From a virus, in the IMG/VR virus record IMGVR_UViG_3300045988_180472, positions 1-52,006 of that record: DNA of 52,006 bases. One strand, given 5' to 3'. Numbering within the stretch: the stretch's first letter is position 1; each line of letters begins with the position of its first letter. This document shows positions 16,097-52,006 of this stretch, piece by piece. The notes beneath the pieces are model-generated. The model worked only from the letters and a program-made list of their open reading frames with translations, did no database searches and was not told where the DNA came from. The translations under genes were made by a program, and so were the position numbers.

Positions 16097-16112
16097 TTCT
16101 TTTGAGCTCTGT

Positions 16113-18148: not shown

Positions 18149-18275
18149 AACCATGGGGCTTCACTTTATGAACAATTTCAAAGGCTTGCGTAAACGCCCG
18201 CGCTGACGACGTTACTTATAAGTAACGCGCGGGCGTTTACGCATGCGAAACTTCCCGGGTATGCGTATGAAACAG

Positions 18276-18302
18276 GCTCTTAAAACTCGATTTAAGGCTC
18301 GT
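18276..18302. repeat. copy of the dispersed element (GGCTCTTAAAACTCGATTTAAGGCTCG), reverse orientation relative to the 51726 copy
   Basis: Reverse complement matches 51726-51752 except for 2 nt. Confidence 0.85.
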
Positions 18303-18340
18303 GAAATTCGATTTGTGTATAAATGCTCACGATTCGAAAA
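18303..18340 (+). promoter_or_regulatory. conserved late-promoter-like box GAAATTCGATTTGTGTATAAATGCTCACGATT
   Basis: Paralog of 16059-16096. Lies 60 bp upstream of the TerL start. Confidence 0.55.
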
Positions 18341-22498: not shown

Positions 22499-25339
22499 AT
22501 GGGCCAGAAAACGCTTTGGGATTCTCTCAAGAGGCTGGCGAAGGACGGATGGATTACCATCAAGCCGAATGGCCGGCGCAACAAAGGCCAGCCCGTTTTG
22601 CTTGGCGAGAATGGCGAAATTCTTGGCGGCATGGGCGGCAAGTTTAACGGCCTCAAGATGAAGGACGTCAAAGAGGCCAATAAGAAGCTCAAGCAGAAGA
22701 ACGAGTACGCTAAAAGCGGCCATTCCAAGGGCGAAAGTCCTGAGTTGTACAACGCGCCGATTCCTTCAGCTGCTCCTAATGCGCCGGCTATCCCGGGCGA
22801 TTACAAGAATTCTCCCGATTTCAAGAAGCTGACGCCTGACGCCCAAACCATGGTGAATCAGACGGCGGCGCACATCAAGAAGTTGCCGCTCGCCAAGATG
22901 GCAGAACACGGTCCCGCCCTGTATGAAGAGCTCGACAAGGTGATTAAAGAGCTGGCGAATAACGGTTCCAAGTTCGATTCCAAGGTCTCCGAAATGATGA
23001 CGAACTTGAACATCGCAGCCATGTCAGCAGCGACTGCCACGCCGACGCCTCCCAATCAACCTAAGCCGTCTAAATCGGAGACCAGTCAGTTTGAAGGTTA
23101 TGACAAGCTGTCGAGCCTGAATGCGAGCGAAATTGATAAACACGCCAAGGTTATCAATGAGAGCAAGGCGGCGCCCGAGGACAAGGCGTTCATGATGGAC
23201 GCGCTGAGACAGGCGACGTCCTATATGGCAGAGAATGGAATGGACGCGGCCGCAGCTAAAGTCTTGAGCGGCATCAATGGCGTTTGGGTGGCGTCGAGCA
23301 ATCCCGACGCGCTCAAGAAGGCAAAAGACGCGTTGTCCGGCTTGCTTGGTGAGATGAACGCGACCGTAGAGCTGGTGAACGCCGGCGGAACATACGCCAG
23401 CAAACAGGAAGCCGGACAACCAGCTCAACCGGCTCAACCAGCTCAACCAGCTCAGCTCCAAGCCGAAATTCCCCATACGCAAAAAGCGGACATTTCTCAG
23501 TACCAGCAGTTTGCTGGTTATAGTGGCCTTGACAAGTACACCAAGAACTGGTTCGATGAAAAAGCCAACGCGCTGATGAAGGCTGATATGAGTCAGTCCG
23601 ATAAGGACATGCTGACGTATGGCATGCAGTTGGCGCTCCAAAATGGTGTCGATCCCAAGAAGAAGGCTGAAAAGTATGGTGGCAAGTTCTTGGGTAAAGC
23701 GCTTGGCGTGATGGATGCTATTGGTGGTATTGCGCAGGCCAATAAGCAGAACAATCAGAAGATGCTCGACTTCTACAAGAATGCCGCTAAGCAGTCAATC
23801 GAGGCCTTGGGTGGAACCACGCAGGGCGCGTCGAATACGCCAGCTGCCACCACACCGAGCTCGGTATCCCCGACGCCTTCCGCAGCTGGTGAAATTCTGC
23901 CGAGCCAGAAGGGTAATCTTAAGGATTACAAGAAATTCATGGGCTATAACAGCCTGAATATGACAAGCAAGATGGTTCTGGATGACGCTGTTCAGAGCCT
24001 CCAAAAGGCGATGTCTGATATGAATCTGGACGTCGCCGATATGGCGAAAATCACCAAAGGCGTTCAAGTAGCTCTCAGCAAGTCTGTAGACGGCAAATTG
24101 GGCCCCGATGTCCAGCATATGCTGATTGCGGCGAAGAGTGCTGCTAAAAAGCTCTATGGGTCAGAAGCGTATAATGAGGCGATAACGAAAGCGCATAAGT
24201 ATGCGAAAATAATCGACCAGCTGCCTATGCCTACAGAAGCTCAGCAGAAAGAAATGGCCGCGTTGGCGGCTAAGCAGGCTGAATATGAGAAGCAGCAGGC
24301 GTTCAATAAAACGCCTTCGTTCACGCAGCAGACGACGGACGCCGACCGTAACAAGTTCAAGTACGCGACTGACAAATTCTTAAGCGACCAAGCCAAGGCG
24401 GATGTAGCGGCTATTCCCAACACGCTGCAGAATGGAAAATTCGCAAAAACCAAGCATAAGAACAAGTTCGAACAAGAACTTGGCGAAGGCGGTGACTCGT
24501 TTAAGAAATACTCTGGTATGGCTTACGGGCTGATGAAGTCGAGCAATAAAGACCTCGCAACCAAAGCCCAGAATATTGCCGTAGCAGTAGCTAACGGGCA
24601 AATGGAAGGTAGCAAGGCTATTTCATTGCTTCAGAGCATGGACGCCATGCAGAAGGTCAAAGACTACACTGACCCCAAAAGCGAGCCGCCAGCGTATACC
24701 AGTATCCACAGCGATGACATTCATAACTCTGGGACGTTCAAGGCTTCAGCTTTGCCGCCCGATCCGAAAGCGGCTGTGATGCAATATACGGGTAATGCCT
24801 ATGCGTCCTTAAACGGCCAGTTACGGCAGAACCAGAAGCTGAGCGCCAAAAATAAGAAGTTGATGGATGATATAAACAAGGCCTTCGCATTACCTGAAGT
24901 CAAGGCGAAGGACAATCTCACAGTCTACCGTGGAATTACGTCCACGCAGCTTCAGCATTTGCCGATTGGTGGCACGTTTACGAACAAGGGGTTCGTTTCG
25001 ACATCTTCTGATGCCTATGAGGCGTCGAAATTCGCCGGCGATAATGGCGCGTTGATGGAAATTCGGGTAAAGAAAGGCCAGCCTGCACTATCGGTCAAAG
25101 ACGTGTCTACATTCCCGGGTGAAAAAGAAGTCCTTCTTCCTACGGCGACCCAATTCACGGTGGTTGGGAAGAAAATTGGTCCGGGAGGCCGTCCTGTGCT
25201 GATTGTGGATTACGTCCCGCCCGCGAACGTCGCAAAAGACCGAGCTTTGACTTACCTGCAACGAGCTGGTTGGGCAAGTACGCCTAAAGACGATGCTGAG
25301 CGCCGTCAAGCCATATTTGACGCGCTGCGTCGCATGTAA
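22499..25339 (+). CDS. large head-module protein with three ~100-aa N-terminal repeats and a C-terminal arginine-type ADP-ribosyltransferase domain (T4 Alt-like; probable capsid-packaged effector)
   Basis: C-terminal region has YTGNAYASLNGQLR (NAD-binding helix), then TVYRG (catalytic Arg), FVSTSS (STS) and FPGEKEV (ExE) with R-to-STS and STS-to-ExE spacings of ~30-40 residues. PAQ x4 linker. Three repeats each containing (F/Y)xGYxxL. RBS GGAGAAAAATAA before the ATG. Confidence 0.75.
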   Translation: MGQKTLWDSLKRLAKDGWITIKPNGRRNKGQPVLLGENGEILGGMGGKFNGLKMKDVKEANKKLKQKNEYAKSGHSKGESPELYNAPIPSAAPNAPAIPGDYKNSPDFKKLTPDAQTMVNQTAAHIKKLPLAKMAEHGPALYEELDKVIKELANNGSKFDSKVSEMMTNLNIAAMSAATATPTPPNQPKPSKSETSQFEGYDKLSSLNASEIDKHAKVINESKAAPEDKAFMMDALRQATSYMAENGMDAAAAKVLSGINGVWVASSNPDALKKAKDALSGLLGEMNATVELVNAGGTYASKQEAGQPAQPAQPAQPAQLQAEIPHTQKADISQYQQFAGYSGLDKYTKNWFDEKANALMKADMSQSDKDMLTYGMQLALQNGVDPKKKAEKYGGKFLGKALGVMDAIGGIAQANKQNNQKMLDFYKNAAKQSIEALGGTTQGASNTPAATTPSSVSPTPSAAGEILPSQKGNLKDYKKFMGYNSLNMTSKMVLDDAVQSLQKAMSDMNLDVADMAKITKGVQVALSKSVDGKLGPDVQHMLIAAKSAAKKLYGSEAYNEAITKAHKYAKIIDQLPMPTEAQQKEMAALAAKQAEYEKQQAFNKTPSFTQQTTDADRNKFKYATDKFLSDQAKADVAAIPNTLQNGKFAKTKHKNKFEQELGEGGDSFKKYSGMAYGLMKSSNKDLATKAQNIAVAVANGQMEGSKAISLLQSMDAMQKVKDYTDPKSEPPAYTSIHSDDIHNSGTFKASALPPDPKAAVMQYTGNAYASLNGQLRQNQKLSAKNKKLMDDINKAFALPEVKAKDNLTVYRGITSTQLQHLPIGGTFTNKGFVSTSSDAYEASKFAGDNGALMEIRVKKGQPALSVKDVSTFPGEKEVLLPTATQFTVVGKKIGPGGRPVLIVDYVPPANVAKDRALTYLQRAGWASTPKDDAERRQAIFDALRRM

Positions 25340-25430: not shown

Positions 25431-27095
25431 ATGCCGCCTTCCTTTTTCAAACTAGCTCTTGACCGTAACTCCGTGCGGAGTTTCGACAAGAACGGGTTTA
25501 TGCACGTCGCAAGCTCGCATATCACCAAAGCCATGGTTTGTCCGTATCGGGGCGATGAAATTCCCGATTACAAAAATCTGGGACTCGATGCGGACAAAAT
25601 TTACCATCTTTTGCGTGACCCTCAAGAACTCGAGAAGTCCGTGCCCACGTGGAAAAATCTGCCGCTCCACATCGAGCACACCGTGGACTCGGCTGATGAC
25701 CCCCAACATGACACGCGAATTGGCACCGTGGGTTCCAACGTCAAATGGAACCCTCCCTTTATTGATGCCGATCTCGCCATATGGGACAAAGCCGCTATCG
25801 ATGCAATCGAGGATGACGAGCTCCGCGAACTCTCATGTGCGTACTTTTACGACCCAGAGCTCAAATCAGGCGAATATGAGGGCCAGCATTACGACATCAT
25901 CATGCGCAATATTCGAGGCAATCATGTTGCGCTGGTGGATAAAGGCCGTGCAGGCCCTCAAGTAATTGTGGCAGACGCCGCATTAAAACCTAAGTCGGCA
26001 GGTGAAACTATGGCAAAACGCAAAATCAACCGCAACAAACTTTTTGCTGCGTTTGACGCCAACCCCTTTATCGAGCGCGCGGAAGTTACCGCGGCCGACC
26101 TGCTTCGCGTCATCAATTGCGTCGAGGCTCAGGCTGAAGGCCTTAACCCGGCGGACCTCAATCTGCCGTGTCGACCCGACTCCTCGCTTGACGAAATCAT
26201 CCGCGCGTGCATGCCGGGTGCTGATGAAGCGGTGCAAACGGCCGTGAAAACTTTGGTAAACGCATTTTCCGAAGCTCCCAAAAACGAGGAAAACACCACT
26301 ATGGACGAAAAAGACCTCAAAAGCGCGATGGACGCTTGCGGCCTTGACGCCGAAGACCCCGCCACCTCCAAGGCGTTTGCCGAGGGCGTGAAGTACGGCG
26401 AGAGGGTGGAAAAGGACGAGCCCAAAAAGCTGGACAGCGAACACGAATCCGAGGGCATGAAGGAAGCCATGGACGCGTGCGGTCTGGACGCTGATGACCC
26501 CGTGGCCTCCAAGGCCTTCGCTGAGGGCGTCAAATACGGCGAAAAAGTCGAAAAAGACGAGCCCAAGAAGCTGGACAGTGAACACGAATCTGAAAGCGCC
26601 AAAGAAGCCATGGACGACGAGCCGGACTTCAGCGGCAAGTCTCCCGAAGAAATCTTCGCTATGGGCGTCGACTATGGCAAGAAGCACGCGGCTGCTGCCG
26701 ACGCGGATGACGACAAAGTCGACCCCGAGGCCGTGGAAGTTGTGGAAGCTGCCATGGACCGCGCTCTTGCTCGCAAGGGCGTCAGCGGCAAGCAGCTCGA
26801 ACGTCGCATTATGGCGAAAGTGCGTGGTCTCTACGCAGCGGCTGCCGATGTCGCCCCCGAGGTTGGTCAGCTCGATCCCATGGCGTTTGACTCCGCCGAA
26901 GGCATCTATGGGTACGCTCTCAAGCAGCTTGGCATTTCCCTGCGTGGAACTCCCGCCAGCGCTTACAAGAGCGTGTTCAGCGCCCTCAAGCAGCAGAAGG
27001 AAAATTCCATCATCGCGATGGACAAGGCCCTCCAGTCTCGAGCTTCCACCTTCGATGGTAAGTTCAAGGGCCTCAACACCATCAAAATTTCCTAA
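25431..27095 (+). CDS. DUF2213-like head protein (putative prohead protease/scaffolding protein) with an acidic repeat-containing C-terminal half
   Basis: N-terminal region FMHVASSHITKAMVCPYRGDEI...LRDPQELEKSVPTWKNLPLHIEH resembles DUF2213. Two ~47-aa tandem repeats AMDACGLDA(E/D)DP...KKLDSEHESE. The ATG at 25431 has a GGAG RBS. Confidence 0.55.
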   Translation: MPPSFFKLALDRNSVRSFDKNGFMHVASSHITKAMVCPYRGDEIPDYKNLGLDADKIYHLLRDPQELEKSVPTWKNLPLHIEHTVDSADDPQHDTRIGTVGSNVKWNPPFIDADLAIWDKAAIDAIEDDELRELSCAYFYDPELKSGEYEGQHYDIIMRNIRGNHVALVDKGRAGPQVIVADAALKPKSAGETMAKRKINRNKLFAAFDANPFIERAEVTAADLLRVINCVEAQAEGLNPADLNLPCRPDSSLDEIIRACMPGADEAVQTAVKTLVNAFSEAPKNEENTTMDEKDLKSAMDACGLDAEDPATSKAFAEGVKYGERVEKDEPKKLDSEHESEGMKEAMDACGLDADDPVASKAFAEGVKYGEKVEKDEPKKLDSEHESESAKEAMDDEPDFSGKSPEEIFAMGVDYGKKHAAAADADDDKVDPEAVEVVEAAMDRALARKGVSGKQLERRIMAKVRGLYAAAADVAPEVGQLDPMAFDSAEGIYGYALKQLGISLRGTPASAYKSVFSALKQQKENSIIAMDKALQSRASTFDGKFKGLNTIKIS

Positions 27096-30540: not shown

Positions 30541-31069
30541 CTTCAACCAGCCGGACGTCTTGACCGCGTTCCATGCGTTCTTGACTACCTACATGGCGAA
30601 TCTTGTGCGCCCAAGCAACATTATTCGAGGCTGGGAAAATCGCAGCTCTCTGCCGCCTAATGAGAACAATTACATCATTTATTCATTAAGCGGGGCGACG
30701 AGAGTTGGGACGAATGCGCGTTCAGAGGTGGACGAGAATGGGAAGTTCACCATGTCCACCATGTTTGAAGGACGCGTTCAAATTGACTTTTGCTCAGATA
30801 CCGACGAGTCGAGAACTTGGGCCGCCTACTGTGACAGCATTTTGCGCTCGCCAGTGGGCCCTGCGTTTTTTAAGGACTACGGGTTTTCCACCTTGTACTC
30901 GGAGGACTTGCAGTCGATAGAGTACACTGATGGGGCTGACCAGTACCTCAAGCGAACGGTTCTCACCGTCCACATTTGTTACACGCTCAAATCAACCTTC
31001 GGCGTAGAGTATGCTGAAAATGTGGCGCTCGCCAAGGTTGAAAACGTGGATGCTCACCACAAACCTTAA
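30524..31069 (+). CDS. putative tail completion / sheath terminator protein
   Basis: 181 aa, immediately upstream of the sheath gene. Confidence 0.4.
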   Translation: MFQPLDFNQPDVLTAFHAFLTTYMANLVRPSNIIRGWENRSSLPPNENNYIIYSLSGATRVGTNARSEVDENGKFTMSTMFEGRVQIDFCSDTDESRTWAAYCDSILRSPVGPAFFKDYGFSTLYSEDLQSIEYTDGADQYLKRTVLTVHICYTLKSTFGVEYAENVALAKVENVDAHHKP

Positions 31070-31080
31070 GAGGGCGCAAA

Positions 31081-32592
31081 ATGACGATTGCCGCATCCAA
31101 CATTGTTAAAATTGAACCTCGTGTAATCGGCGCGGGGCGTTCCGAGCTCGAGCTTAACGGCTTGCTCATCACGCCCGTTGACCTGACCACGGAACAGCTG
31201 GCCTTCCCCAGTGGGCTGATGGAGTTTACGTCCGCCACCGCTGTGGGCGAGGTGTTTGGTACGACATCCCCCACGTATATGTTCGCGACCCAGTATTTCA
31301 ATGGGTACGTGAACAAATTCTCTTCGCCCAAGGCTCTGTTTGTGGCCGCATGGGCGAAGACTGCGCAGGCGGGCTATGTCCTTTCCGCGTCGAATCCTTC
31401 CACGCTGGCGCAACTGAAGGCTGTCACTGCCGGCAAAATGAACTTCACCGTTGACGGCACCAAGAAGACCGTGACTGGCATCAATCTCGCCAGCGCTACT
31501 TCCATGGCGCAGGTGTGCACTTTGGTGGCCGCCGATGCTGAAGGGTGGACATTGACTTACAATGGCGCGAGCCAACGCTTCATGCTCAAATCCGAGACCA
31601 CCGGCGCTGAAAGTTCTGTGGTGATGGACGAGCAGGAAGATGATGGCACGAACCTCGCCTACGCGCTTGGGTTGATGCCCTTGCAGGGCGCATTGACGTC
31701 TGCTGGCGTCGCCGTAGAATCCGCCGGTGACGTGATTGCCAGAGTGCTGGAGCACTCGCAAAACTGGGTCACCTTCACCTTCAGCGAGCCGTCCGACGCT
31801 GCTGATGGCGAATCTACCATCGGCGAAACGGCCTCTAATTGGGCTGCACAGAACTATGGGTTCGTGTACGTCGGCTATTCCGACAATGAAGCGCTGGCCA
31901 CGGCTGAATCCGATACCGATATCATCAGCAAGATGGCCGTGAACGACAACACGGCTTTCGTGTATGGTGATACGAAGTATGCCGCGTTCCTCATGGGTTC
32001 CATCGCGTCCGTCGACTGGAATCGTGAAAACGGCGCCATCACGTATGCGTTCAAGTCCGGCGTGGGACTGGCGGCGACGGTGACGACGGAAGTTATGGCG
32101 AATTTCCTCGAGAACCGCAACGCCAACTTCTTTGGCAACTACGCCACCAGAAATGCCGAGTTTGACTTCTTCTATCCCGGCCGTTTGCTGAACTCGAACT
32201 ACGTGTTCATTGACCCGCTCATCAACTCCATTTGGCTGAACAACGCGCTGCAGGTGGCCATCATGAACGGCCTCACTATCGCGCCGCGCGTTCCTTATAC
32301 CGATGGTGGATATGCGCGGATTCGTTCGTGGATGATGGACCCCATCAACCGCGCTCGTACCAACGGCACCATTGAAGCCGGCGTGAACCTGTCCGACGCC
32401 CAAAAGGCCGAAGTAATGGCGGAGGCTGGAATGGACATTTCCGAAGAGCTGTTCACCGCCGGTTACTTCCTGCAGATTATTGACCCGGGTGCTCAAGCTC
32501 GAGTCAATCGCGAAACGCCAGTAATCTCGCTCTGGTATACTTACGGCGGAGCTGTTCAGCGCATCACCGTGGCCAGCACGGCAATTCTCTAA
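31081..32592 (+). CDS. tail sheath protein
   Basis: 503 aa, followed by a 145-aa tube-like protein and a frameshifted chaperone pair. RBS AGAGGG. Confidence 0.7.
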   Translation: MTIAASNIVKIEPRVIGAGRSELELNGLLITPVDLTTEQLAFPSGLMEFTSATAVGEVFGTTSPTYMFATQYFNGYVNKFSSPKALFVAAWAKTAQAGYVLSASNPSTLAQLKAVTAGKMNFTVDGTKKTVTGINLASATSMAQVCTLVAADAEGWTLTYNGASQRFMLKSETTGAESSVVMDEQEDDGTNLAYALGLMPLQGALTSAGVAVESAGDVIARVLEHSQNWVTFTFSEPSDAADGESTIGETASNWAAQNYGFVYVGYSDNEALATAESDTDIISKMAVNDNTAFVYGDTKYAAFLMGSIASVDWNRENGAITYAFKSGVGLAATVTTEVMANFLENRNANFFGNYATRNAEFDFFYPGRLLNSNYVFIDPLINSIWLNNALQVAIMNGLTIAPRVPYTDGGYARIRSWMMDPINRARTNGTIEAGVNLSDAQKAEVMAEAGMDISEELFTAGYFLQIIDPGAQARVNRETPVISLWYTYGGAVQRITVASTAIL

Positions 32593-32607
32593 TCGCAAGG
32601 ATTCGAC

Positions 32608-33045
32608 ATGGCTGATTTCGATATTACTTCCACTAATGCGACTGGTGTGCTTGTCGTTGACCAGCTCTTCCCTGCCGGCATCGAGCTGGAAATGTTTGGG
32701 ACTGACCAGTCTGTGGTGCAGGACAGCGTGCAGGTTGCTGAAACACGTATGTCCGTGGATGGCAAAATGGTGGCTGGTTATCTGCCGGCCATCTTCCCCG
32801 TAACCATCACGCTTGAAGCGCCTTCGCGCACTGCCAAGAGCTTCGGCACCCTGTACTCCGCGATGGCGACGAACAAGACCATCTACGAGTGCTCGCTGAC
32901 GTTTGTCGTGCCGTCGGTTGGCAAAATCTTCACATGGTCGAAAGGCGTCCTCCATGATGGCGTGCCGTTCCCTTCCAACAAGAAGGTGCTGGACCCGACG
33001 ACGTGGGTTTTCCACTTTGAGCGGCTCGACATCGCGTCGTTCTAA
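32608..33045 (+). CDS. tail tube protein
   Basis: 145 aa, directly after the sheath gene. Confidence 0.65.
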   Translation: MADFDITSTNATGVLVVDQLFPAGIELEMFGTDQSVVQDSVQVAETRMSVDGKMVAGYLPAIFPVTITLEAPSRTAKSFGTLYSAMATNKTIYECSLTFVVPSVGKIFTWSKGVLHDGVPFPSNKKVLDPTTWVFHFERLDIASF

Positions 33046-33092
33046 GGTCCTCTGCCAGTAAACTCGCTAAGAGCTCGAATTTTCACGGGTAG

Positions 33093-33137
33093 CCGAAAAA
33101 TTCGAGTTCTTAAAACTCATTTTAAGGCCTCGAAATG
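33093..33137. repeat. copy of the dispersed element (CGAAAAATTCGAGTTCTTAAAACTCATTTTAAGGCCTCG)
   Basis: Matches the CTTAAAACTC / TTTTAAGGCCTCG halves. Confidence 0.7.
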
Positions 33138-33210
33138 GATTTTGCGGGCTAATACTCACAACCGCAATTTCGACGAGTTTTATAAGAAAGTCTAATAATA
33201 CGGAGCACTT

Positions 33211-33666
33211 ATGCGTAAATCCATCACCGTGTCCATCGATGACCGCGGGAAGCAGCTGCAATTCAAGATTACGGAAATGCCCGCCACCAAATTGGAGCGC
33301 TGGCTCACTCGCGCCCTGTTGCTCATTGCGGCGGCGAATAAGGGCGAAGCCGATGGCGGCGTAGATTTGCAAGCCGCAGCAAGCCACTTGGCTTCTCAAG
33401 GCATGCGTGCTCTTGCCAACGTTCGGTATGAAGACGCTGAACCGTTGCTGGAGGAAATGCTGAACTGCTGCACCCGCATTGACGCTGGCGTTGACCAGAA
33501 GTGCACGTCCGATTCCGTGGATGGTTACATCGAGGACGTGCAGACGCTGTTCAAGTTGCGGATGGAGGCCATGAAGCTCAACCTCAGTTTTTTTACCGAA
33601 AGCCCGTCGACCTCCCAAAGCAACGACAATACTCTCAAGCTCAAGGTTCCGGCATCAAAGGCTTAG
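33211..33666 (+). CDS. tail assembly chaperone (G-like, 0-frame product)
   Basis: 151 aa, between the tube and tape measure genes. RBS ACGGAG. Confidence 0.65.
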   Translation: MRKSITVSIDDRGKQLQFKITEMPATKLERWLTRALLLIAAANKGEADGGVDLQAAASHLASQGMRALANVRYEDAEPLLEEMLNCCTRIDAGVDQKCTSDSVDGYIEDVQTLFKLRMEAMKLNLSFFTESPSTSQSNDNTLKLKVPASKA

Positions 33667-33863
33667 CTGAATACGCGAACGTCACCAATGTGGTTGGAAC
33701 GTTGGTAGCACGGCAAATGGCGACCTTGCACGAGCTCCAAACCGTATACAGTTATACGGACGCCTTGGATATTTTCGAAACAATCCAAGTGGCTGACTAT
33801 AATAAGTGGGTTGTTGACGATTTCCACCAGCAAGAAGCCAAGCGCAAGCACAAAATCAAGTAA
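33211..33863 (+). CDS. tail assembly chaperone GT-like product via programmed -1 ribosomal frameshift at TTTTTTT (33588..33594)
   Basis: The overlapping ORF 33501..33863 is in the -1 frame. The T7 slippery run sits inside the overlap (AGT TTT TTT ACC). This matches the conserved G/GT arrangement upstream of tape measure genes. Confidence 0.65.
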
Positions 33864-33905
33864 AAGAAAAGGCCGCGAGCTCATTACTCGCGGCCTCTTC
33901 GCATT

Positions 33906-34166
33906 CTAGTAAATGCGCTTGCTGCCTTGCCATGAAAATTCGTATTGCCTCATCAAACCATCGCTCGTACGCACGTTCATCATGTAGACGCCTTGCTTGT
34001 CATTTTTGGCAAGCGATTCAGTCATTTGGAGCAATGACTGCTTAATCGCCTCTTCAAGGCAGTCCTTCAAAGTGACGCCGCAAAAGAACACAGGCGTCAT
34101 CCCATCAGGCTCGCGAACAATTGACATGCGCACAATAAGCGCTTCTCTAATTTCCACTTTGTCCAT
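33906..34166 (-). CDS. hypothetical protein (86 aa), reverse-oriented cassette within the tail module
   Basis: The ATG at 34166 overlaps the upstream stop (TAATG). GGAGGTGG RBS. Confidence 0.45.
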   Translation of the reverse strand: MDKVEIREALIVRMSIVREPDGMTPVFFCGVTLKDCLEEAIKQSLLQMTESLAKNDKQGVYMMNVRTSDGLMRQYEFSWQGSKRIY

Positions 34167-34435
34167 TACGCCACCTCCGCGTACCAAGTGAAGTCGATGG
34201 CAGGGATGTCAACGGTCACCGTCCACGGGTAATCCGTGATGATGCGGTTGTGCGCGTCAGGCGAGCTGCAAGCGCGGCGAGCGTTGCGCACGTGGTTGAC
34301 GACCTGCTGACAGATGAAGTTCTTGTCGGAGACTTTAGAGTCAAACGACACGTCAGTGATGGGCTCGTAAACAGTGTCGCCATCAGCGAGGTCGATGGTG
34401 ACGTAAACAGCGACGTAAACCTTCTATACGTTCAT
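34166..34435 (-). pseudogene. gene with an in-frame amber (TAG) at codon 4 (34424..34426), downstream of a strong RBS+ATG (34433..34435); the remaining 61-codon ORF begins with GTG
   Basis: GGAGGA-n6-ATG AAC GTA TAG, then open in the same frame for 86 more codons to 34166. Confidence 0.45.
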
Positions 34436-34607
34436 GATATTCCTCCAAGTTGTTCGTTGATTTCTTTATGCCATAAGCCAATGGTGATGTAAACGGGTTT
34501 TCAGCTGGAAAACGAATATTTTTTCAATTTATCCTCTTGGGCGGTAACCCTTATATAATGAATTCAAGTTGTTCTTCCGGCGAAGGTGAAAGGGTTGAAG
34601 AGAAAAA

Positions 34608-34639
34608 GGCTGTATGTTAATCATACAGCCTTTCTTCTT
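34608..34639. terminator. bidirectional rho-independent terminator
   Basis: Hairpin GGCTGTATG-TTAAT-CATACAGCC, flanked by an A-run upstream and TTTCTTCTT downstream. Confidence 0.7.
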
Positions 34640-34644
34640 ATGTG

Positions 34645-34911
34645 TTACTTCACAGTAACCAACTGTTCAATGTACATATCATCTTCTAACACATCACTGT
34701 AGAGCTTTAAAGACAACGTTTGCTTAGGCATGACGCCATGCTTCATCTTCATTTCTAAGTTCTTGGCTAAGCCTTTGAGAACAAACCTACAATTAGATTC
34801 GTTGAAGACGTGGTATTCAAGTGTACAAGTTGGTTCACAACCTTTATAAAAGAAGTTGTGCAATTCAACAGGTTCACCCATGCCATCGCTAATAGTAACA
34901 ACTGCCAACAT
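34645..34911 (-). CDS. AT-rich moron protein (88 aa), unknown function
   Basis: GGAGG RBS before the ATG at 34911. Markedly lower GC than the flanking genes. Has its own downstream terminator. Contains CEPTC...C. Confidence 0.5.
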   Translation of the reverse strand: MLAVVTISDGMGEPVELHNFFYKGCEPTCTLEYHVFNESNCRFVLKGLAKNLEMKMKHGVMPKQTLSLKLYSDVLEDDMYIEQLVTVK

Positions 34912-35040
34912 AGTGTACCTCCATTCATTATTCACTATTCACTTGTAGCAACCATTTGTTAAAGACAGTATGCACCAACCAAATGAACTTGTAAATAGCT
35001 TTTGGGCGATTTTATGAAAAAATTTTTCTAGGAGCCACCC

Positions 35041-36804
35041 ATGGCGATTATTGATTCCTTCAAAATTCTCTTCGGCGTTGACCCGTCAGGTGTCGCCAAG
35101 GGTATGGCGCAAGCAGAGAATCGAATCAAATCAGGCGTTCAGAACATTATATCGAATGTCCTCGCGCCATTGACTGGTGCTCTGGCGATCGGGAACGCCT
35201 TCAATAACTTCATCAGCCAAGCCGACAAGCTGGGACTTCTCGCCGACAAGCTGGGCATGGACGTCGCGGAAATCGACGCATGGTCAGCTGCAGTAGAGAA
35301 TGCTGGCGGGTCGGCTGAAGCATTTCAAGGGACTCTCAAGAGCTTCAGCGACAACCTGCGCAACGCAGCCCTCGTCGGCGGCGGAGCTGGTGTTGAATGG
35401 CTCTATTATATGGGAATCAGCGCAGTCAATGCTGAGGGCAAGCTCAAGAATTTGACCGAAGTGCTCCCAGACTTGGCGGACAAAGTTGCCGGCATGTCGA
35501 AGATGAAGAGCACGTATATCCTCCAGCAACTGGGGCTTGACGAAGGCACCATCAGGTTGGTCCAGAAGGGCAGGAAGTCAGTCGAGGAATTGGTTGGAGC
35601 GATGAAGCTCTTCGCCTACTCCAAGAAGGACGCTGAGACTGCCCGCGAATTCAATTCGGCGATGAACCTGCTGGGAAAAGGTACGCAGTCCGTCGCCAAC
35701 CTTATCTTCGCACAGCTCACGCCAGTGGTCACGCAGCTGGCGAATGAGTTTGTGAAGTTCATCGTCTTCCTCCGAGAACACGAGAATTTCGTCATCGCCT
35801 TCTTTGGCGTCCTTATTGCTCTCTCCCTCAAGTTCCTAGCGGCATGGCTCATGAACCCGGTAGTTGCCGCCATTATGGCGATTATCGCGGTCGCTGCTCT
35901 ACTTGCTGGTATTATCGATGACCTCATCGCCTACATGAACGGTGGAGGCTCTGCTCTTGAAGACCTGTGGAGCATCTTCGGGACGGGCGAAGAAATTGCC
36001 GCACGTCTTAATGCGGCATGGGAAGGCCTGAAGGCGACGGGCAAAGCCTTATGGGACGGGCTGACGGAAGAAGTTTCGCGCTTCGCCAGCTTCTTTGAAC
36101 CGGCCTTGAAGCCCATCATCGGCGTATTTACGAGCATCTTCCAGCTCATTGGCAATATTATGGACGGCGAATGGCGTAAGGCTGGTGAATCCTTACGCAA
36201 CGTCTTTAATAACGCCCTTGAAGCTGTGAAGAATATGTTCAAGGGCGCCGTAGATTACGTCCTTGACCTCCTTAACCGCATTTGGGAGTGGTTCGATAAC
36301 CTCGATTTCGGCAGTATCTGGGAGGGCATTAAGGAGTTTGCTGGTGGGTTCTTTGGTGGTGATGACGAGGAGGCTAAGGAAAAAGCCAAAGTCAAGCCGA
36401 CGGACAAGAGCCCGCTGAACAACAATCCCGCATTCGAAAATCCCTATGCTATGGGATACGACGGGCGTGGGAATCCCGTGACTGAAGCCCGCAAGGGACA
36501 AGCGTTGTTGCCTCCCCAAGTTGTTGCGCCAGCCCCTACGCTGGCCTCAGCTGCTCTGCCCACCATTTCCGCCATGCAGCACGCGTCAGCGCCAGCTCAA
36601 GCTCAAACGCAGCCTTCAGCGCTCGCATATAAGCCCGCGGCTCCAAACAACACGAAAGTTGATTCCACGCTCAACGTGGGCACTTTCAACGTGTACACAA
36701 ACGCGACGAATGCCGATGGCACGTTTAACGACGCGGCCTCCTCATTCTCCAACCAGTTTGGCAGTATGATGTATCCCGCTCTCTCGGGGGTAAATACCAA
36801 ATGA
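35041..36804 (+). CDS. tail tape measure protein
   Basis: 587 aa, alpha-helical with hydrophobic central segments (FIVFLREHENFVIAFFGVLIALSLKFLAAWLM...). Sits after the chaperone genes. RBS AGGAG. Confidence 0.7.
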   Translation: MAIIDSFKILFGVDPSGVAKGMAQAENRIKSGVQNIISNVLAPLTGALAIGNAFNNFISQADKLGLLADKLGMDVAEIDAWSAAVENAGGSAEAFQGTLKSFSDNLRNAALVGGGAGVEWLYYMGISAVNAEGKLKNLTEVLPDLADKVAGMSKMKSTYILQQLGLDEGTIRLVQKGRKSVEELVGAMKLFAYSKKDAETAREFNSAMNLLGKGTQSVANLIFAQLTPVVTQLANEFVKFIVFLREHENFVIAFFGVLIALSLKFLAAWLMNPVVAAIMAIIAVAALLAGIIDDLIAYMNGGGSALEDLWSIFGTGEEIAARLNAAWEGLKATGKALWDGLTEEVSRFASFFEPALKPIIGVFTSIFQLIGNIMDGEWRKAGESLRNVFNNALEAVKNMFKGAVDYVLDLLNRIWEWFDNLDFGSIWEGIKEFAGGFFGGDDEEAKEKAKVKPTDKSPLNNNPAFENPYAMGYDGRGNPVTEARKGQALLPPQVVAPAPTLASAALPTISAMQHASAPAQAQTQPSALAYKPAAPNNTKVDSTLNVGTFNVYTNATNADGTFNDAASSFSNQFGSMMYPALSGVNTK

Positions 36805-37385
36805 GTCAATTGACCGTGCTTAATTCCAATTCAAGCGCCGATTCCAACTCGAACGCTATTAACACAGGTTCTGAGTGGGCTGTCGTCGCGCGGAACAAAG
36901 GGCTGTCAGTGCAGTTTGACGGCATTATGGACATTGACGTCAAGAATGAGTCGAAAGTGCTGACGTCGCCCATTGAGAAGAGCAGCTTCGCCGCTTACAA
37001 TAAAGTGGAAACGCCTCTGGATGTGGTGATAACTGGGGCTTCTCAGCAAGACGGCGCGACACAGTCAGCCATTCTTGACGCGCTCAACAAGCTGGTGTCT
37101 GGTGCCGAACTGGTGGACATTGTGACGCCGACGGCTGTTTACCTCAAGATGACGCTCGAGTCCTACAGCTACAAGCGAACGGCCACAGACGGTGCGTCGT
37201 TGCTTGTGGTAGAACTCCACGCCATTGAAGTGCGCGAGGTGGAGACAACGCGAGTAACCAAAACAAAGCGGGCGTCGTCTGCCAAGACGCAAAAGACGGG
37301 GCAGACGCAAACGAAGAAGCCGAGCAACTCCGCGTTCTTTGACGCCAACGGTGGGAAGAAGCTCAATCTTGGAGGGCTGGTCTGA
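36801..37385 (+). CDS. tail/baseplate assembly protein (hypothetical)
   Basis: 194 aa, directly after the tape measure gene. Overlapping start. Confidence 0.4.
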   Translation: MSQLTVLNSNSSADSNSNAINTGSEWAVVARNKGLSVQFDGIMDIDVKNESKVLTSPIEKSSFAAYNKVETPLDVVITGASQQDGATQSAILDALNKLVSGAELVDIVTPTAVYLKMTLESYSYKRTATDGASLLVVELHAIEVREVETTRVTKTKRASSAKTQKTGQTQTKKPSNSAFFDANGGKKLNLGGLV

Positions 37386-43551: not shown

Positions 43552-46194
43552 ATGGCCTATGATTTCAAATATATCCGTACAGGCACGGGCGAACTGTCTG
43601 GCCCGTCCATGATTTGGCAGACTGAGCAAGCTCTGACGCAAATTGGTACGTATGCCGATGAAGCGAATACCAAGGCTGATGAAGCTCTGGATACGGCCAA
43701 TACCGCGCTCAATAAAGCCAATGAGGCGGCTGAAGCTGCCGAGCGAGCTCAGAATACGGCTGACGCAGCTCAAGCCGCCGCTAACCATGCTCAGGAGACC
43801 GCCGACGCTGCTCAGGTTGCGGCGGACAACGCCCAAGATACCGCTGATGAAGCTCTTGAGACCGCCCAGAAGGGCGTAGCTGACGCAGCCAAAGCTCAGG
43901 CTGCTGCAGACAAAGCTCAGGCCACAGCTGATGCAGCTCAGGACGCGGCCGATGCTGCTCAGCTGACGGCGGATAACGCCCAGAATGCGGCTGATAAAGC
44001 TCAGGACGCGGCTGATGCTGCCCAGCAGACTGCCAACGATGCGCTCAATGCCACCAGCAACTCGCAAGGCTCGGCTAACGTCGCACAAGATACGGCTGAC
44101 AATGCTCTGCTTGTAGCGCAGTCCACTCAGCAGGCATTCTATGAGCACGTTCACGAGTATACTTCTCAGATTGCCAAGGCGCTGGGAGAATTCGAGGCGG
44201 ACAACACTACGGTGAATTTCGACAATTTCACCGATTCCGTCAAGCTGTACATCACCAGCCCTGATGCGTCCATTACAGGGCCTAACGGCAAGGTTAACTC
44301 ACCGTTCTACCTGTGGAACTTCACTACGGACGACCGTTCGTCTACTGCCCAGTTTGTATACGCAGCGAACGGCCTTACGTACAGCCGATATGGTACCATA
44401 GGGCAGAACGACCTCGTCCCCGGCACCGATACTTACACGCTCGAGAACAACAGCAAAAACGCCATCCTCACGTGTAATGGCGTCGCCAGTGGTATGACTA
44501 TCACCAAGAGCGGTTCGCTGACCAACACGTGGACCGCGTCCGATACTCATAATTCGTATATCACTGGTACGTGGAACATCAAAGGTATCACCAACGGAAC
44601 AATCGATCTCAACGGCGTTACAATCGCCAACTTGTCCGATACGGGATTCTATCCTACTAGACAACAACGACTACAGGAAGACAACACCAGCTTCGTAATC
44701 GAAGACATGACCTATAGCGCTGACGACGGCCTGACCATCAAGGTGACAGTCCAGTGGCTGAATATCGATAGTCAAATTAGCTGGGACAGCTGGAAGGTGG
44801 ACACGCCTGCGGTGGACACGTCTGCAGTTGACAACGTGACTATCAAGTATAATTCGTCTAACGAGCTGCAGGCGAAGGACGTGGCGATTGGGGGGAATCA
44901 GGGTGATCTTGCGAGCGCACGGGGGCTGTTCAACGCAAAAAGTACAGGGGCCGTAGACTGCAACACCCTCACGAATCAGGGCGTGTATGCCATTCATCAA
45001 TCGGGCACGACGAACGGCCCCGGCTTCCCGATAAAGATGTTGCTCTTGTGTTCCGCAAATTCTTTGTTGACCACGCAACTTGGCATTTCTTCGGGCGGCG
45101 CAATGGCTACGGCTCAACGGCTTGCCCTGAGAAACAGAAACAACGATGGCAAATGGAGCAAGTGGGCGGAGTTTTTCAATAGTCTTAGGACTGGTGACGG
45201 CCTCAAATCCATCAACGGCATCATCTCCGTGCCCGAGTATGAGGGCGCGACGGCATCGACAGCCGGGACAAGCGGCCTTGTACCGCCCGCAACCGCCGGG
45301 CAACAGGATAGCTTTCTGACCGGAGGCGGGGAATACAAGCCCGCGCTCTCGACTGGCGGCGGCGTCCTGACGGGCAGCATGCAGATCAATGATCCCGCAA
45401 ATGTGATTGGGTCGGCACCCTCTACCGATACTGAGCGCGGCCTGTTTCTTGGCGACAAAAACAGCGTGGTCATGGGCGGGTTCGATGTCATACAGCGCGC
45501 ATCGGATAACGCTAAGTACGCGCAAGTCTATTCAAAAAATAGCAGAGGAGATATAGCGTCCCTTGCTGCTGTGACTTATGAAGACGGCACGAGAGAACTT
45601 GTGGCGGATAGCCCTCTCCAAATCAACGACATACAAATAAAACAGGTCGTTGACGGCGGAAGAAGGGTAATCGTGCTCTCTGGGGCGCGTGGCAAGGAAG
45701 GGTATTCATTTCGTTTTTCCCCGGACACGGGGGAGGCATATATGGATGGCCGTGTAATACATGCGAAAGCCGATACCGCCGGATACGCAGATACCGCCGG
45801 AAGTGCTCCGGCAAATGGCGGGACGGCATGGGCCGCGAACCGCCTGTGCTTAACAGAGGGCGGTGAAATAGCATGGAGTTGGACGGGACAAGGAGGTCAA
45901 CCCAAGTGGTTGTGGGGAGGCAATGACGGCGTCAACATGCGCGTCTACAACCCCGCCAATTTCAGCGTGAACTATGCGAACAGTGCGGGCAGTGCTCCTG
46001 CGAACGGAGGGACGGCATGGGCGGCGACCGTTACGCCCAATGTTGTAAATGTCCACTATTCAACATTGCCCGCAGGAGGAACATGGCTGGTCATGAGTCT
46101 TGGTAATAACGATGGTGGTCAATTTCAAGAATTGAATTTTTCACAGGTCGCAGGGGGCACGAGAACATTCGGGCTTGCTATCAGAATAGCTTAA
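43552..46194 (+). CDS. long tail fiber protein with Ala-rich coiled-coil shaft
   Basis: 880 aa. Many DTADAAQ / ADKAQ heptad-like repeats across 43700-44100. Gly/Thr-rich distal region. Confidence 0.65.
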   Translation: MAYDFKYIRTGTGELSGPSMIWQTEQALTQIGTYADEANTKADEALDTANTALNKANEAAEAAERAQNTADAAQAAANHAQETADAAQVAADNAQDTADEALETAQKGVADAAKAQAAADKAQATADAAQDAADAAQLTADNAQNAADKAQDAADAAQQTANDALNATSNSQGSANVAQDTADNALLVAQSTQQAFYEHVHEYTSQIAKALGEFEADNTTVNFDNFTDSVKLYITSPDASITGPNGKVNSPFYLWNFTTDDRSSTAQFVYAANGLTYSRYGTIGQNDLVPGTDTYTLENNSKNAILTCNGVASGMTITKSGSLTNTWTASDTHNSYITGTWNIKGITNGTIDLNGVTIANLSDTGFYPTRQQRLQEDNTSFVIEDMTYSADDGLTIKVTVQWLNIDSQISWDSWKVDTPAVDTSAVDNVTIKYNSSNELQAKDVAIGGNQGDLASARGLFNAKSTGAVDCNTLTNQGVYAIHQSGTTNGPGFPIKMLLLCSANSLLTTQLGISSGGAMATAQRLALRNRNNDGKWSKWAEFFNSLRTGDGLKSINGIISVPEYEGATASTAGTSGLVPPATAGQQDSFLTGGGEYKPALSTGGGVLTGSMQINDPANVIGSAPSTDTERGLFLGDKNSVVMGGFDVIQRASDNAKYAQVYSKNSRGDIASLAAVTYEDGTRELVADSPLQINDIQIKQVVDGGRRVIVLSGARGKEGYSFRFSPDTGEAYMDGRVIHAKADTAGYADTAGSAPANGGTAWAANRLCLTEGGEIAWSWTGQGGQPKWLWGGNDGVNMRVYNPANFSVNYANSAGSAPANGGTAWAATVTPNVVNVHYSTLPAGGTWLVMSLGNNDGGQFQELNFSQVAGGTRTFGLAIRIA

Positions 46195-47846: not shown

Positions 47847-48884
47847 TTACACTCCTTCCGCCTTAAGCTGCTGGTCATTCGCGCGAACGTCATTCATAAG
47901 CTGAGCGAGGTAAATCAACTTCTGCAGACCATTGGCGTACTTCATAATCGAGCTGGCCCAATACTTTTGCGGGCGCGTTTTAGGCTGGCAATAGTAGATG
48001 GTGTTGTAATTCATACCATTAGGTATAATACTGCGAGCGCCCAACATCGCACCAACAACGGCGCAATTAGTATCCGTGTCATAACCCAACTTGGTGACTT
48101 CGCCCATGATTTCTTCAAGGCTGGAACCAGTACGCAGGCCAAAAGTGAAAGCGTGCTGCAAAGCATACAGAACCCAACCATGCCCAAGAACAGGCAATTC
48201 ACCACTCACAGCTTGTATAACGCTTGGCACAATGAATGCCCGCTTGCAGAAGTCAAGCGTCATTTCTTTAATACGAGCGGGCTCATAGCCTTGCAGAGCG
48301 TAGTACAAACCGGCAATAAACGCATGGTTGGCGTCAATGCAAGTACGCGAGCGATGCGTCAGCTCGGCATCCCAAGTAGCCAAGTCTTCAATGCGTGAGG
48401 CAATGCGGCCATTACGCGTGATTTGCGCGCCATAGTTGGATAAAAAGAACAGCGCAGCAACGGGTGCAACGCGCATAAGTGCGCCGTTGCCTTGCGCATG
48501 TTCATTAATATCCATATAAATGCCAGTCCGCTGGAGTGCCGCAGCAACAGTAGACCCGCAATCGACAGGCCGCGAATAATACCAATCGCGATAAGCCGCC
48601 TTCATAGTCTTCGCGAAGTCGCCGTGGTTTGTGACGTCCGTCATATCTTGACCGTTCAGCACAACCTCACGCGCGATTTCATACACCTGCCGAAGCAGCA
48701 AACTCATCATTTCAGAATCGTCAGTTAACTGGCCCACCATGAGCTTATGCGGTCCGCCTTCAATTGGTGCAGTCAAACCATTGGGAAAGTTCTTCTGCAC
48801 CGCGTCGGGCGGATAGAACTCGCAGCCTGCGCCGATAGCGTCACCTGCAATTAAGCCAAAAATCATGTTTTCAATTCGAGTCAT
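47847..48884 (-). CDS. ADP-ribosyl-glycohydrolase (DraG/ARH family)
   Basis: GLIAGDAIGAGCEF, GQLTDDSEM, GNGALMRVAP and DTDTNCAVVGAMLGA match the ARH/DraG signature regions (Mg-binding DDT and DTDT motifs). AGGAGG RBS before the ATG at 48884. Confidence 0.8.
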   Translation of the reverse strand: MTRIENMIFGLIAGDAIGAGCEFYPPDAVQKNFPNGLTAPIEGGPHKLMVGQLTDDSEMMSLLLRQVYEIAREVVLNGQDMTDVTNHGDFAKTMKAAYRDWYYSRPVDCGSTVAAALQRTGIYMDINEHAQGNGALMRVAPVAALFFLSNYGAQITRNGRIASRIEDLATWDAELTHRSRTCIDANHAFIAGLYYALQGYEPARIKEMTLDFCKRAFIVPSVIQAVSGELPVLGHGWVLYALQHAFTFGLRTGSSLEEIMGEVTKLGYDTDTNCAVVGAMLGARSIIPNGMNYNTIYYCQPKTRPQKYWASSIMKYANGLQKLIYLAQLMNDVRANDQQLKAEGV

Positions 48885-49299
48885 AACGAGCCTCCTGCTG
48901 TAACATTTTGGCAACCAGCCCATAAACATAGGTCGCTTGTTCTTTAGTGGTGATATGGACGGTTCGCTTATCTTCAGCGCAAACAATAACAGGTTCGAAT
49001 GCCTCAGATGTCAATGACGCCTTATGGCATACGATGACAGTTCCAGCCTGCACATACTTGACGAGCGAACCTTCCAACTTCACCTTGTCACCAAAAGAAG
49101 TATACGCCATCAGCGAACCTTTGTAAACGCTTGTATGGCTGATTTTCAAAATAAAATACGTGTCGAACGGCGAGCATGGTGGAAATTCGGACATTACCTC
49201 CATAAGATGGTGATGCGCAAATGAATCGCGCGAGCTGACTATGGCCCTCCCGTCATCCACCATCAACACTGAGTCGCATGCGTACACGAGGGGCAACAT
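48871..49299 (-). CDS. hypothetical protein (142 aa)
   Basis: ORF in the early operon. No motif recognised. Confidence 0.45.
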   Translation of the reverse strand: MLPLVYACDSVLMVDDGRAIVSSRDSFAHHHLMEVMSEFPPCSPFDTYFILKISHTSVYKGSLMAYTSFGDKVKLEGSLVKYVQAGTVIVCHKASLTSEAFEPVIVCAEDKRTVHITTKEQATYVYGLVAKMLQQEARYDSN

Positions 49300-51686: not shown

Positions 51687-51725
51687 TGAAGACGTGAACA
51701 TTTATATACGAATTGAATTTCACAG

Positions 51726-51752
51726 GCCTTAAATCGAGTTTTAAGGCCTCGT
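51726..51752. repeat. copy of the dispersed palindromic element (GGCCTTAAATCGAGTTTTAAGGCCTCG)
   Basis: Most symmetric copy; reverse complement of the 18276 copy. Confidence 0.85.
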
Positions 51753-51817: not shown

Positions 51818-51979
51818 TCACATAAATGTCAGGTAGGAGCCTACCAATGACCCGATGCCGAAGGCTATCAGAATTTTTCCAATCAATCGTCGTCCCAAGT
51901 TGCCGCCATACTCATACATCAGCAGCCCGCCAACTATCATCGTTAGGCTCAGCATCCGCAGGTAATCCATCTGAGACAT
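51818..51979 (-). CDS. small membrane protein (53 aa), begins inside the terminal 55-nt identity
   Basis: ATG at 51979 (= 27 in the first copy) with a GAGGTGAGT RBS. Hydrophobic, IVGGLLMYEYGG. Confidence 0.45.
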   Translation of the reverse strand: MSQMDYLRMLSLTMIVGGLLMYEYGGNLGRRLIGKILIAFGIGSLVGSYLTFM

Positions 51980-52006
51980 ACTCACCTCGCTTACTTTACC
52001 ATGGCC
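51952..52006. repeat. Second copy of the 55-nt terminal identity
   Basis: Identical to 1..55. Confidence 0.9.

Follow-up and report, generated by a model that had tools for sequence, protein, structure and literature searches.

A reverse-oriented, probably moron-like accessory cassette at the tail chaperone/tape measure junction of an uncultured gut myophage lineage

In Mu-like Pseudomonas phages, acr-aca operons sit at fixed junctions of the structural region. The term "moron" itself was coined for gene 15 of phage HK97, a gene found at the junction of the tail chaperone and tape measure genes (PMC3594210); its product, gp15, is a YebO-like inner-membrane protein made from the prophage of this temperate phage, and it blocks DNA entry (Juhala et al. 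2000; Cumby et al. 2012; PMC3594210). A second small moron, the 83-residue Tab of Pseudomonas phage JBD26, is located between the terminase genes, is expressed from the prophage and acts through the tape measure protein of other phages, whose tails then fail to assemble (PMC10884400). In this work we describe a cassette of three small genes, referred to as A, B and C, which lies in reverse orientation between the tail chaperone and the tape measure genes of the IMG/VR virus record IMGVR_UViG_3300045988_180472, whose 52,006 nucleotides constitute the window analyzed here and belong to an uncultured lineage of human gut myophages with an E217-type tail. We suggest, with a probability of about 0.65, that the cassette is a lineage-specific, moron-like accessory insertion at the classical HK97 gp15 site, whose products would be cytoplasmic and expressed early.

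The comparison with HK97 gene 15 is the closest one. In both cases extra DNA, absent from close relatives, occupies exactly the same junction and combines small protein products with a terminator and a promoter of its own (here a promoter-like match), and its guanine-plus-cytosine (GC) content differs from that of its neighbors, in this case within the module of gene C. Unlike HK97, the phage is apparently virulent, the products are soluble and have no homologues, the transcription units are two and not one, and the B-A unit is not compositionally foreign. With respect to the Hendrix/Juhala definition of a moron, the extra DNA is present and so, at the level of the sequence, is the terminator, while the deviating composition is found in the C module, weakly in A and not in B; the part of the definition concerning a benefit for the lysogen probably does not apply here. 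None of the three proteins has the transmembrane-level hydropathy, or the Pfam or NCBIfam match, expected of a YebO-type exclusion protein. The cassette shares with acr-aca loci the small, often acidic ORFans, the fixed hotspot among structural genes, the content varying between relatives and an own promoter (here promoter-like), and a cassette found at the same junction in a related phage (L022, see below) has the layout of a small ORFan followed by a helix-turn-helix (HTH) gene. Unlike acr-aca loci, the window holds no HTH (aca-like) gene, and comparisons with solved anti-defence proteins revealed nothing similar to A, B or C in sequence or in fold. The resemblance is one of layout only. The likeness to Tab lies in the small ORFan moron within a late operon, without similarity to known proteins, and the differences lie in the site, in the lack of homology between Tab and A, B or C, and in the absence of any sign of lysogeny here.

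The 1,177 bp between the stop of the GT product (33863) and the start of the tape measure gene (35041) hold three minus-strand reading frames (Table 1), arranged in two units, that is, the B-A operon and the separate gene C, each with its own signals. The original prediction, made from the sequence alone, had proposed that about 1.1 kb of minus-strand genes, comprising an 86-amino acid (aa) gene, an upstream partner and an 88-aa gene with its own GGAGG ribosome-binding site, split the chaperone and the tape measure genes. The split, the three frames and the ribosome-binding site (34918-34922) were all found, but the upstream partner, gene B, is not intact: it reads ATG AAC GTA TAG, with an in-frame amber codon at codon 4 (34424-34426). 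Its relatives carry CAG at this codon and encode a protein of 88 or 89 aa (the intact versions being those of L001, L005, L006, L010, L011, L020 and L025-L029, where L numbers denote related genomes and contigs). The same CAG-to-TAG transition is present in the independent assemblies L002 and L003; thus, it represents a circulating allele and not a sequencing error. Recoding or suppression of the amber codon was ruled out, since the genome has no transfer RNA (tRNA) gene and all its long open reading frames (ORFs) are open under code 11. The sole downstream in-frame start of B is a GTG at 34351, lacking a ribosome-binding site, and we take B to be, most probably, a null allele here. The three products are soluble ORFans with a mass of about 10 kDa each; that of A has an isoelectric point (pI) of 6.2, that of C has a pI of 5.5 and a CxxxC motif, and that of B is acidic in the intact relatives (pI 4.3-4.6).

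As for the borders of the cassette, the identification of the left one as a G/GT chaperone was right, because a canonical slippery heptamer, T_TTT_TTT, leads into a -1 frame ORF matching phrog_3976. The G part itself matches the Pfam family Phage_TAC_15 (expectation value, E, 1.7e-5) and phrog_1932, "tail assembly chaperone" (E = 4.5e-26). In the tape measure protein on the right border PhageMin_Tail is also found, at E = 6.3e-7 and with 29.9 bits, under the Pfam gathering cut-off of 33.2. A 73-aa minus-strand ORF (33663-33884), annotated by automated callers in related contigs, runs antisense to the T extension matching phrog_3976 and is probably spurious.

A megablast search of positions 31000-37000 against 50,697 phage records gave no match, so the synteny was derived from protein-anchored look-ups. 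Eight more distant relatives were sampled, with sheath identities ranging from 62% down to 35-40%, and in seven of them the chaperone gene is followed directly by the tape measure gene, in agreement with the original prediction that this is the normal arrangement. The junction is direct in L021 (62% sheath identity), L023/L024 (51%), L032 (49%), L033 (47%), L009 (40%) and Burkholderia phage vB_E177 (L007, about 37%); the seventh, Pseudomonas phage Amjad_SA (L008, about 37%), has no reverse insert and is counted as direct despite two small same-strand ORFs lying between the two genes. The eighth, L022 (50%), carries a reverse cassette at this junction that is unrelated to the one described here. 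This cassette (7491-8092) has the same hairpin after the GT stop as the genome studied here, and then an 87-aa ORFan overlapping the gene of a 113-aa protein with a Phage_CI_repr HTH domain (PF07022, E = 4e-5), the tape measure start lying about 210 bp further on; the 87-aa protein has no similarity to A or C. The finding of an unrelated cassette at the same place leads us to consider that the chaperone/tape measure junction is, as far as these genomes suggest, a recurrent insertion site with variable cargo.

This distribution bears directly on the possibility that A, B and C are unrecognized tail-assembly or structural factors in reverse orientation. The one argument for this idea is their position between two tail-assembly genes. 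The three genes are absent from all the more distant relatives that share this tail module, they are confined to a single species, several haplotypes of which have lost one or another of them, and they lie on the opposite strand with early-type promoter matches of their own; we therefore regard this explanation as extremely improbable, and the proposal that the genes do not belong to the conserved tail core stands.

Inserts were also observed at other junctions of the same module. In L023/L024 a HicB-like antitoxin gene (3066-3473) follows the major capsid gene, and in L021 (5732-6571) and L023 (11652-13599) the Pam3_gp18-like gene is succeeded by tRNA_anti-like (OB-fold) genes on the minus strand, and in L023 by an HSDR_N gene as well. 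Several junctions of this tail/head module thus appear to act as hotspots.

Homologues of A, B and C were found only in metagenomic contigs of this phage species (Logan, ENA, IMG/VR; up to 52.5 kb), and human faecal studies are the source of the two contigs whose record names reveal an origin. The species comprises about 14 haplotypes, and the cassette is present in every contig, although in very different states of preservation. All three genes are intact in seven haplotypes (L001, L005/L029, L006/L025, L010, L026, L027 and L028), whereas in the haplotype of the genome studied here B has the amber codon, and A and C are intact. In L002/L003 the amber codon in B is accompanied by a 12-bp deletion, the B-A junction is deleted and A has lost 15 and 41 bp. 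In L004, C is hit by deletions of 25, 14 and 17 bp, and B and A are fused in frame after deletions of 12, 30 and 33 bp; B has been removed by two different deletions in L015 and in L016/17/19; in L020, A carries a 15-bp deletion and a 1-bp frameshift. Lastly, gene C is missing from the most divergent lineage, L011-L014, which lacks exactly positions 34637-35011, bordered by a (C/T)TTATG direct repeat, and keeps the hairpin at 34605-34633. This absence fits a separately inserted moron; a microhomology deletion may be the alternative cause. The deletions within the cassette are flanked by microhomologies (among them GTTTACGTC, CTGA, CAAC and ATCGTSCGC), while the adjacent tail genes of the same contigs differ by substitutions, the exceptions being the tape measure (564-587 aa) and Dit-like genes, in which a few in-frame changes of length occur. 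Taken together, the haplotypes indicate that each of the three genes is dispensable.

Nowhere does the cassette vary more than at the B-A junction. Across the species, at least four different N-termini of gene A occur (34152-34166 compared with 6001-6030 of L001), namely MDKVE, from an ATG overlapping the B stop, MANTIDYDEG, from a GTG one base past the B stop, MNETG and MSE.

In spite of these losses, the divergent intact copies bear the marks of selection. The ratio of non-synonymous to synonymous substitution rates (dN/dS), obtained by the Nei-Gojobori test, lies at 0.06-0.23 in A, 0.07-0.32 in B and 0.04-0.25 in C, compared with 0.02-0.08 for the flanking tail genes, and the contrast between synonymous and non-synonymous changes in the three genes is significant (Fisher p from 1e-7 to 6e-15). 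Constraint on A and B is 2-5 times weaker than on the core tail genes, and that on C is like that on the tube and tape measure genes (0.04). These values point to A, B and C as genes encoding selected proteins, kept under purifying selection. Cassette genes and flanking tail genes have the same dS (0.5-1.0 in the cassette), which implies vertical inheritance and co-divergence with the phage since these lineages split.

One might consider, instead, that the three genes are nearly neutral hitch-hikers in decay, without a current function. Indeed, one or more of the genes are inactivated in about half of the haplotypes, no fewer than 10 independent indels have accumulated within 1.1 kb next to flanks that, but for those few length changes, differ by substitutions, and the constraint on A and B is relaxed to the extent given above. 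This idea is difficult to reconcile with dN/dS values still at 0.04-0.3 when dS has reached 0.5-1.0, with the tail-gene-like constraint on C, with seven divergent haplotypes having all three frames open, or with the fact that the three B-A deletions of L004 are all in frame, so that the A part stays translatable; hence, we judge it decidedly improbable.

The same haplotypes allow us to evaluate whether B and A form a toxin-antitoxin-like or addiction pair, with B as the presumed toxin and A, coupled to it in translation, as the antidote. Both genes are small, they are neighbors with an overlap (TAATG), B is the one most often lost while A is kept, and they are fused in frame in L004. Nevertheless, A occurs alone in this genome and in L015-L017, and B alone in L020, which indicates that neither gene is needed to tolerate the other; in addition, no toxin or antitoxin family (such as the type II HicAB) was matched in Pfam, NCBIfam or PADLOC, and A has no recognizable DNA-binding domain, its model showing no DNA-binding fold. 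An addiction pair is, on these grounds, very improbable.

The base composition separates the two units. The GC content is 0.517 in the genome and 0.382 in gene C (z = -2.9 in 267-nt windows, 2% of which are as low), and it falls to 0.375 in the stretch of the C module from 34436 to 35040 (z = -3.8, lowest 1% of windows), one of only three regions more than 2.5 standard deviations below the mean in 605-nt windows. The GC content at third codon positions (GC3) is 0.45 in gene C versus 0.64-0.77 in the sheath, tube, chaperone and tape measure genes and in B. The GC content of B (0.556) is typical of the genome, and that of A (0.471, GC3 0.60) is mildly low. Only the C module is compositionally foreign, and B and A look native; the lower GC content that had been claimed for the 88-aa gene is therefore real and significant on calculation. 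The foreign composition of the module suggests that it may have been acquired separately, and, since the composition of B and A matches that of the genome, it is the synteny that speaks for a foreign origin of B-A. The gene loss within the species, the synteny and the significant GC drop of the C module all support the moron-type accessory insertion that had been proposed for this locus.

Each unit also has signals that would make it independent of its surroundings (Table 1). Promoter-like boxes had been predicted for the 88-aa gene, and a sigma-70-like consensus match is indeed present upstream of it, as it is upstream of B-A. The pattern of the B-A promoter, CATTGGCT-N5-CATAnAGAAATCAACG (29 nt), recurs once in the genome (10283-10311, minus strand), where it precedes a small left-arm gene starting at 10245, and none of 100 shuffles gave any match to it. 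A looser version of the motif occurs in five copies, all on the minus strand, compared with 1.3 +/- 1.2 in shuffles, a figure which is suggestive only because the loose pattern was defined after three sites had been seen. GC-rich hairpins followed by minus-strand T-runs are found after both A and C, as expected if each unit has a terminator of its own. The one after A has a strong T-run on the minus strand and a weak one on the other strand, was flagged by the terminator scan on the minus strand only, and is conserved in all haplotypes. The one after C, which had been described as a bidirectional terminator at 34608-34639, exists as a hairpin (at 34605-34633), with a good T-run on the minus strand and a plus-strand tail that is only moderately T-rich; it is kept even in the lineage without gene C. 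The search against Rfam gave only sub-threshold matches, falling on the terminator hairpins.

The palindrome abutting the -35 box of the B-A promoter is possibly an operator. It is conserved in all the haplotypes that keep this promoter stretch and is deleted in L015, and its only other exact copy (15003-15019) lies in the large AT-rich control region of the genome. This region (14666-15893), a 1.2-kb non-coding AT-rich tract between the divergent arms, contains iteron-like repeats, GCGCAACAATG, in several copies (15342-15453), as well as GATGACACCTGAGTGACGC repeats, and is probably the origin or the main control region. A further family of AT-rich, hairpin-containing repeats, with the core CTTAAAACTCGATTTAAGGC, was observed at 33046-33210, 11326-11379, 15756-15874, 16024-16152, 18246-18334 and 51692-51752; one copy takes up the 165 bp that separate the tube gene from the chaperone gene, an unusual spacer that is almost nil in the more distant relatives except L022, and a second copy precedes the large terminase gene. 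These repeats could be late promoters or regulator sites.

The existence of such signals raises the question of whether the cassette might act in cis, with convergent transcription and the hairpins insulating or timing the tape measure and baseplate genes, or through proteins regulating phage development. Genes placed antisense within a late operon are bound to cause transcriptional interference when both strands are active, the palindrome is common to the cassette and the main control region, a CI-type HTH protein is encoded at the same site in L022, and the hairpins are kept where genes are lost. On the other hand, it is the protein sequences that are under purifying selection, relatives free of the cassette build the same tail module, and A, B and C show no DNA-binding fold; a regulatory role is, in our opinion, rather improbable.

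Table 1. Positions of the cassette features and of the flanking tail genes in the 52,006-nucleotide window
Feature	Position	Strand	Remarks
Sheath gene	31081-32592	+	DUF3383, also called E217_gp31
Tube gene	32608-33045	+	E217_Gp32
Tail assembly chaperone G gene	33211-33666	+	151 aa; left border of the insertion site
Slippery heptamer	33588-33594	+	T_TTT_TTT, canonical; read from the sequence
T extension of the GT product	to 33863	+	-1 frame; stop 33861-33863; phrog_3976, E = 9e-17
Hairpin terminator of the B-A operon	33866-33900	-	stem GGCCGCGAG/CTCGCGGCC; directly after gene A
Gene A	33906-34166	-	86 aa; GGAGG at 34174-34178; start overlaps the B stop as TAATG
Gene B	34166-34435	-	89-codon pseudogene in this genome; GGAGG at 34442-34446
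B-A promoter-like site	34465-34493	-	TTTACA-N17-CATAAA, then GAAATCAACG (34493 to 34455)
Palindrome	34497-34513		GTTTTC-N5-GAAAAC; abuts the B-A -35 box
Hairpin terminating gene C	34605-34633		perfect 12-bp hairpin; minus tail TTTTTCTCTTC
C module	34637-35011	-	about 375 bp: promoter-like site, ribosome-binding site, gene C; flanked by (C/T)TTATG direct repeat
Gene C	34645-34911	-	88 aa; AT-rich; GGAGG at 34918-34922
Gene C promoter-like site	34967-34995	-	TTTACA-N17-CATACT
Tape measure gene	35041-36804	+	587 aa; right border of the insertion site; phrog_2276, E = 1.5e-42

The genome in which the cassette is embedded is complete. The two ends of the window are identical over 55 nt (1-55 = 51952-52006), which corresponds to a circularly assembled genome of 51,951 bp. 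The replication and nucleotide-metabolism arm occupies the minus strand (DNA ligase, family A DNA polymerase, Enc34-type single-stranded DNA-binding protein, dUTPase, dCMP deaminase and ThyX, together with a DUF2800 nuclease, a PriCT/VapE primase-helicase and an SNF2 helicase), and the structural genes lie on the plus strand. Neither an integrase nor a repressor was found in the 30 ORFs scanned; together with the minus-strand replication arm, the lack of an integrase in these ORFs indicates that the phage is probably virulent.

This setting has to be taken into account when considering a classical prophage moron, whose genes would be active in the repressed prophage and would help the lysogen by excluding superinfecting phages or by raising host fitness. 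The identity of the junction with that of HK97 gene 15, the promoter-like sites and terminator of each unit, the deviating GC content of the C module and the CI-repressor-type HTH protein at the same site in L022 are all in agreement with it. A genome that has, as virulent phages typically do, a complete arm for replication and nucleotide metabolism, and with no integrase or repressor among the 30 ORFs scanned, is not; besides, all contigs are free, phage-sized genomes of 48-52.5 kb, the 55-nt end overlap is that of a circular assembly, a search with B found no copy in 185,579 bacterial species genomes, and the membrane segment of gp15, SieA and Ltp is lacking in all three proteins. A moron serving a lysogen thus seems improbable for this cassette.

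The original prediction recognized no family for the three proteins, and the searches in Pfam, PHROGs, PADLOC and NCBIfam bear this out, with no significant match for A, B or C. Weak matches of A to DUF3886 (E = 0.03) and phrog_6412 (E = 0.011) were disregarded as non-significant; a HMMER profile search of A against 1.84 billion representatives retrieved only its own cluster, a 23-residue match in a 3219-aa protein being spurious. For B, no match was obtained in phage records, in PDB or in the bacterial genomes mentioned above. On this evidence, A, B and C appear to be true ORFans. The AlphaFold2 model of A, built on a shallow alignment (predicted local distance difference test score, pLDDT, 78), has a beta-beta-alpha-beta-beta order, with predicted strands at residues 9-19 and 26-33, a helix at 34-55 and strands at 59-67, 72-80 and 83-85. 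The model of C, also from a shallow alignment (pLDDT 63), has the same order, and its segment 16-35, which holds the CxxxC motif, is poorly defined. Foldseek searches against BFVD returned nothing at E <= 1e-3; remote homology and structure prediction, which had been proposed as a check, thus yield a generic fold for A and C and no functional match. The pattern of beta-hairpin, helix and beta-hairpin that all three sequences seemed to have in common (with models for A and C) might suggest paralogy of the three genes; this was rejected at the sequence level, with hhalign probabilities of at most 0.2%, and so was a relationship of the 87-aa protein of L022 with A and C. No hydrophobic segment is present in any of the three proteins (maximum 19-residue Kyte-Doolittle hydropathy 0.5-0.9), which disfavors a superinfection exclusion of the classical membrane type.

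The whole body of data is best accounted for, in our opinion, by the moron-like accessory insertion introduced above. That the cassette is accessory, independently transcribed, protein-coding and dispensable we regard as very likely. Transcription of the two units would start at host sigma-70-type promoters, belonging to one class with those of the minus-strand replication arm, in the early or middle phase of infection, that is, before the late tail transcript and antisense to it; for the early timing itself we would not go beyond even odds. Late plus-strand transcription would then run through the cassette to the tape measure gene, making RNA antisense to A, B and C, and such a read-through is probable since the hairpins are strong in the minus direction only. 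The proteins would act in the cytoplasm on functions of the host or of competitors that vary between host strains, which would explain why the genes are kept in some haplotypes and discarded in others.

As to what these functions might be, counter-defence or host takeover seems to us the likeliest class, a tentative suggestion made on circumstantial grounds and one that we hold to be somewhat doubtful. It draws on the virulent look of the phage, on the small, soluble and partly acidic proteins, on their variable presence among near-identical genomes, and on a hotspot whose other occupant, in L022, has the layout of an ORFan plus an HTH gene. A bolder and unlikely version would make A, B and C the first members of new families of counter-defence proteins in gut Desulfobacterota-type phages, with one or more of them also triggering a host abortive-infection system. 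In that case, the repeated, independent knock-outs (the amber codon in three assemblies, the removal of B by two distinct deletions and the losses through slippage in A) would reflect positive selection for escape on particular host strains and not neutral decay.

Some points weigh against the explanation that we prefer, namely the accessory insertion with early-expressed cytoplasmic products. The promoter calls are consensus matches and the motif shared between them was defined post hoc; gain and loss of C in the L011 lineage are not polarized; frequent loss is also expected of nearly neutral genes; B and A do not deviate in composition from the genome. To these the host assignment must be added, the nearest genome-embedded sheath homologues having 45-47% identity and belonging to Desulfobacterota (Desulfovibrio, Desulfarculales and Adiutrix assemblies).

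Other features of the genome, lying outside the tail chaperone/tape measure region, were noted during the analysis. A 946-aa protein of the head-morphogenesis region (22499-25339, plus strand), encoded between the portal-side genes and the DUF2213 protein gene, ends with an ADP-ribosyltransferase exoenzyme domain (PF03496, E = 1.5e-22), and a 379-aa ADP-ribosylglycohydrolase (PF03747, E = 2e-36) is encoded at 47847-48986 on the minus strand; the two could be an injected ADP-ribosyltransferase and its reversing enzyme. A protein with a dATP/dGTP diphosphohydrolase N-terminal domain (7396-7719, minus strand; PF18909, MazZ-like, E = 2e-28) is encoded next to the ThyX, dCMP deaminase and dUTPase genes (5460-7403), a neighborhood that hints at a modified nucleotide pool. 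The gene of an 880-aa tail fibre-like protein contains 21-nt (7-aa) tandem repeats (43642-44107), and the Alanine_zipper domain (PF11839) of its product, at residues 21-67 (about 43612-43752), overlaps the start of the repeats only. Finally, a 141-nt tandem duplication with 80% identity (26325-26606) is found inside the gene of the 600-aa DUF2213 protein.

The protein families described here are new and the phenomenon is known; the cassette is a fairly ordinary accessory insertion, and it leaves the known organization of phage genomes unchanged. If our reading is correct, it represents one more case in which the chaperone/tape measure junction serves as a recurrent landing site for accessory genes, two unrelated cassettes occupying the same site within this lineage of gut myophages with an E217-type tail. 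The haplotypes with all genes intact, with B, A or C inactivated, or with C absent provide a ready-made allelic series for testing the function of these genes, and the junction itself could guide the collection of candidate genes for counter-defence or takeover in metagenomic phages whose hosts are hard to culture.

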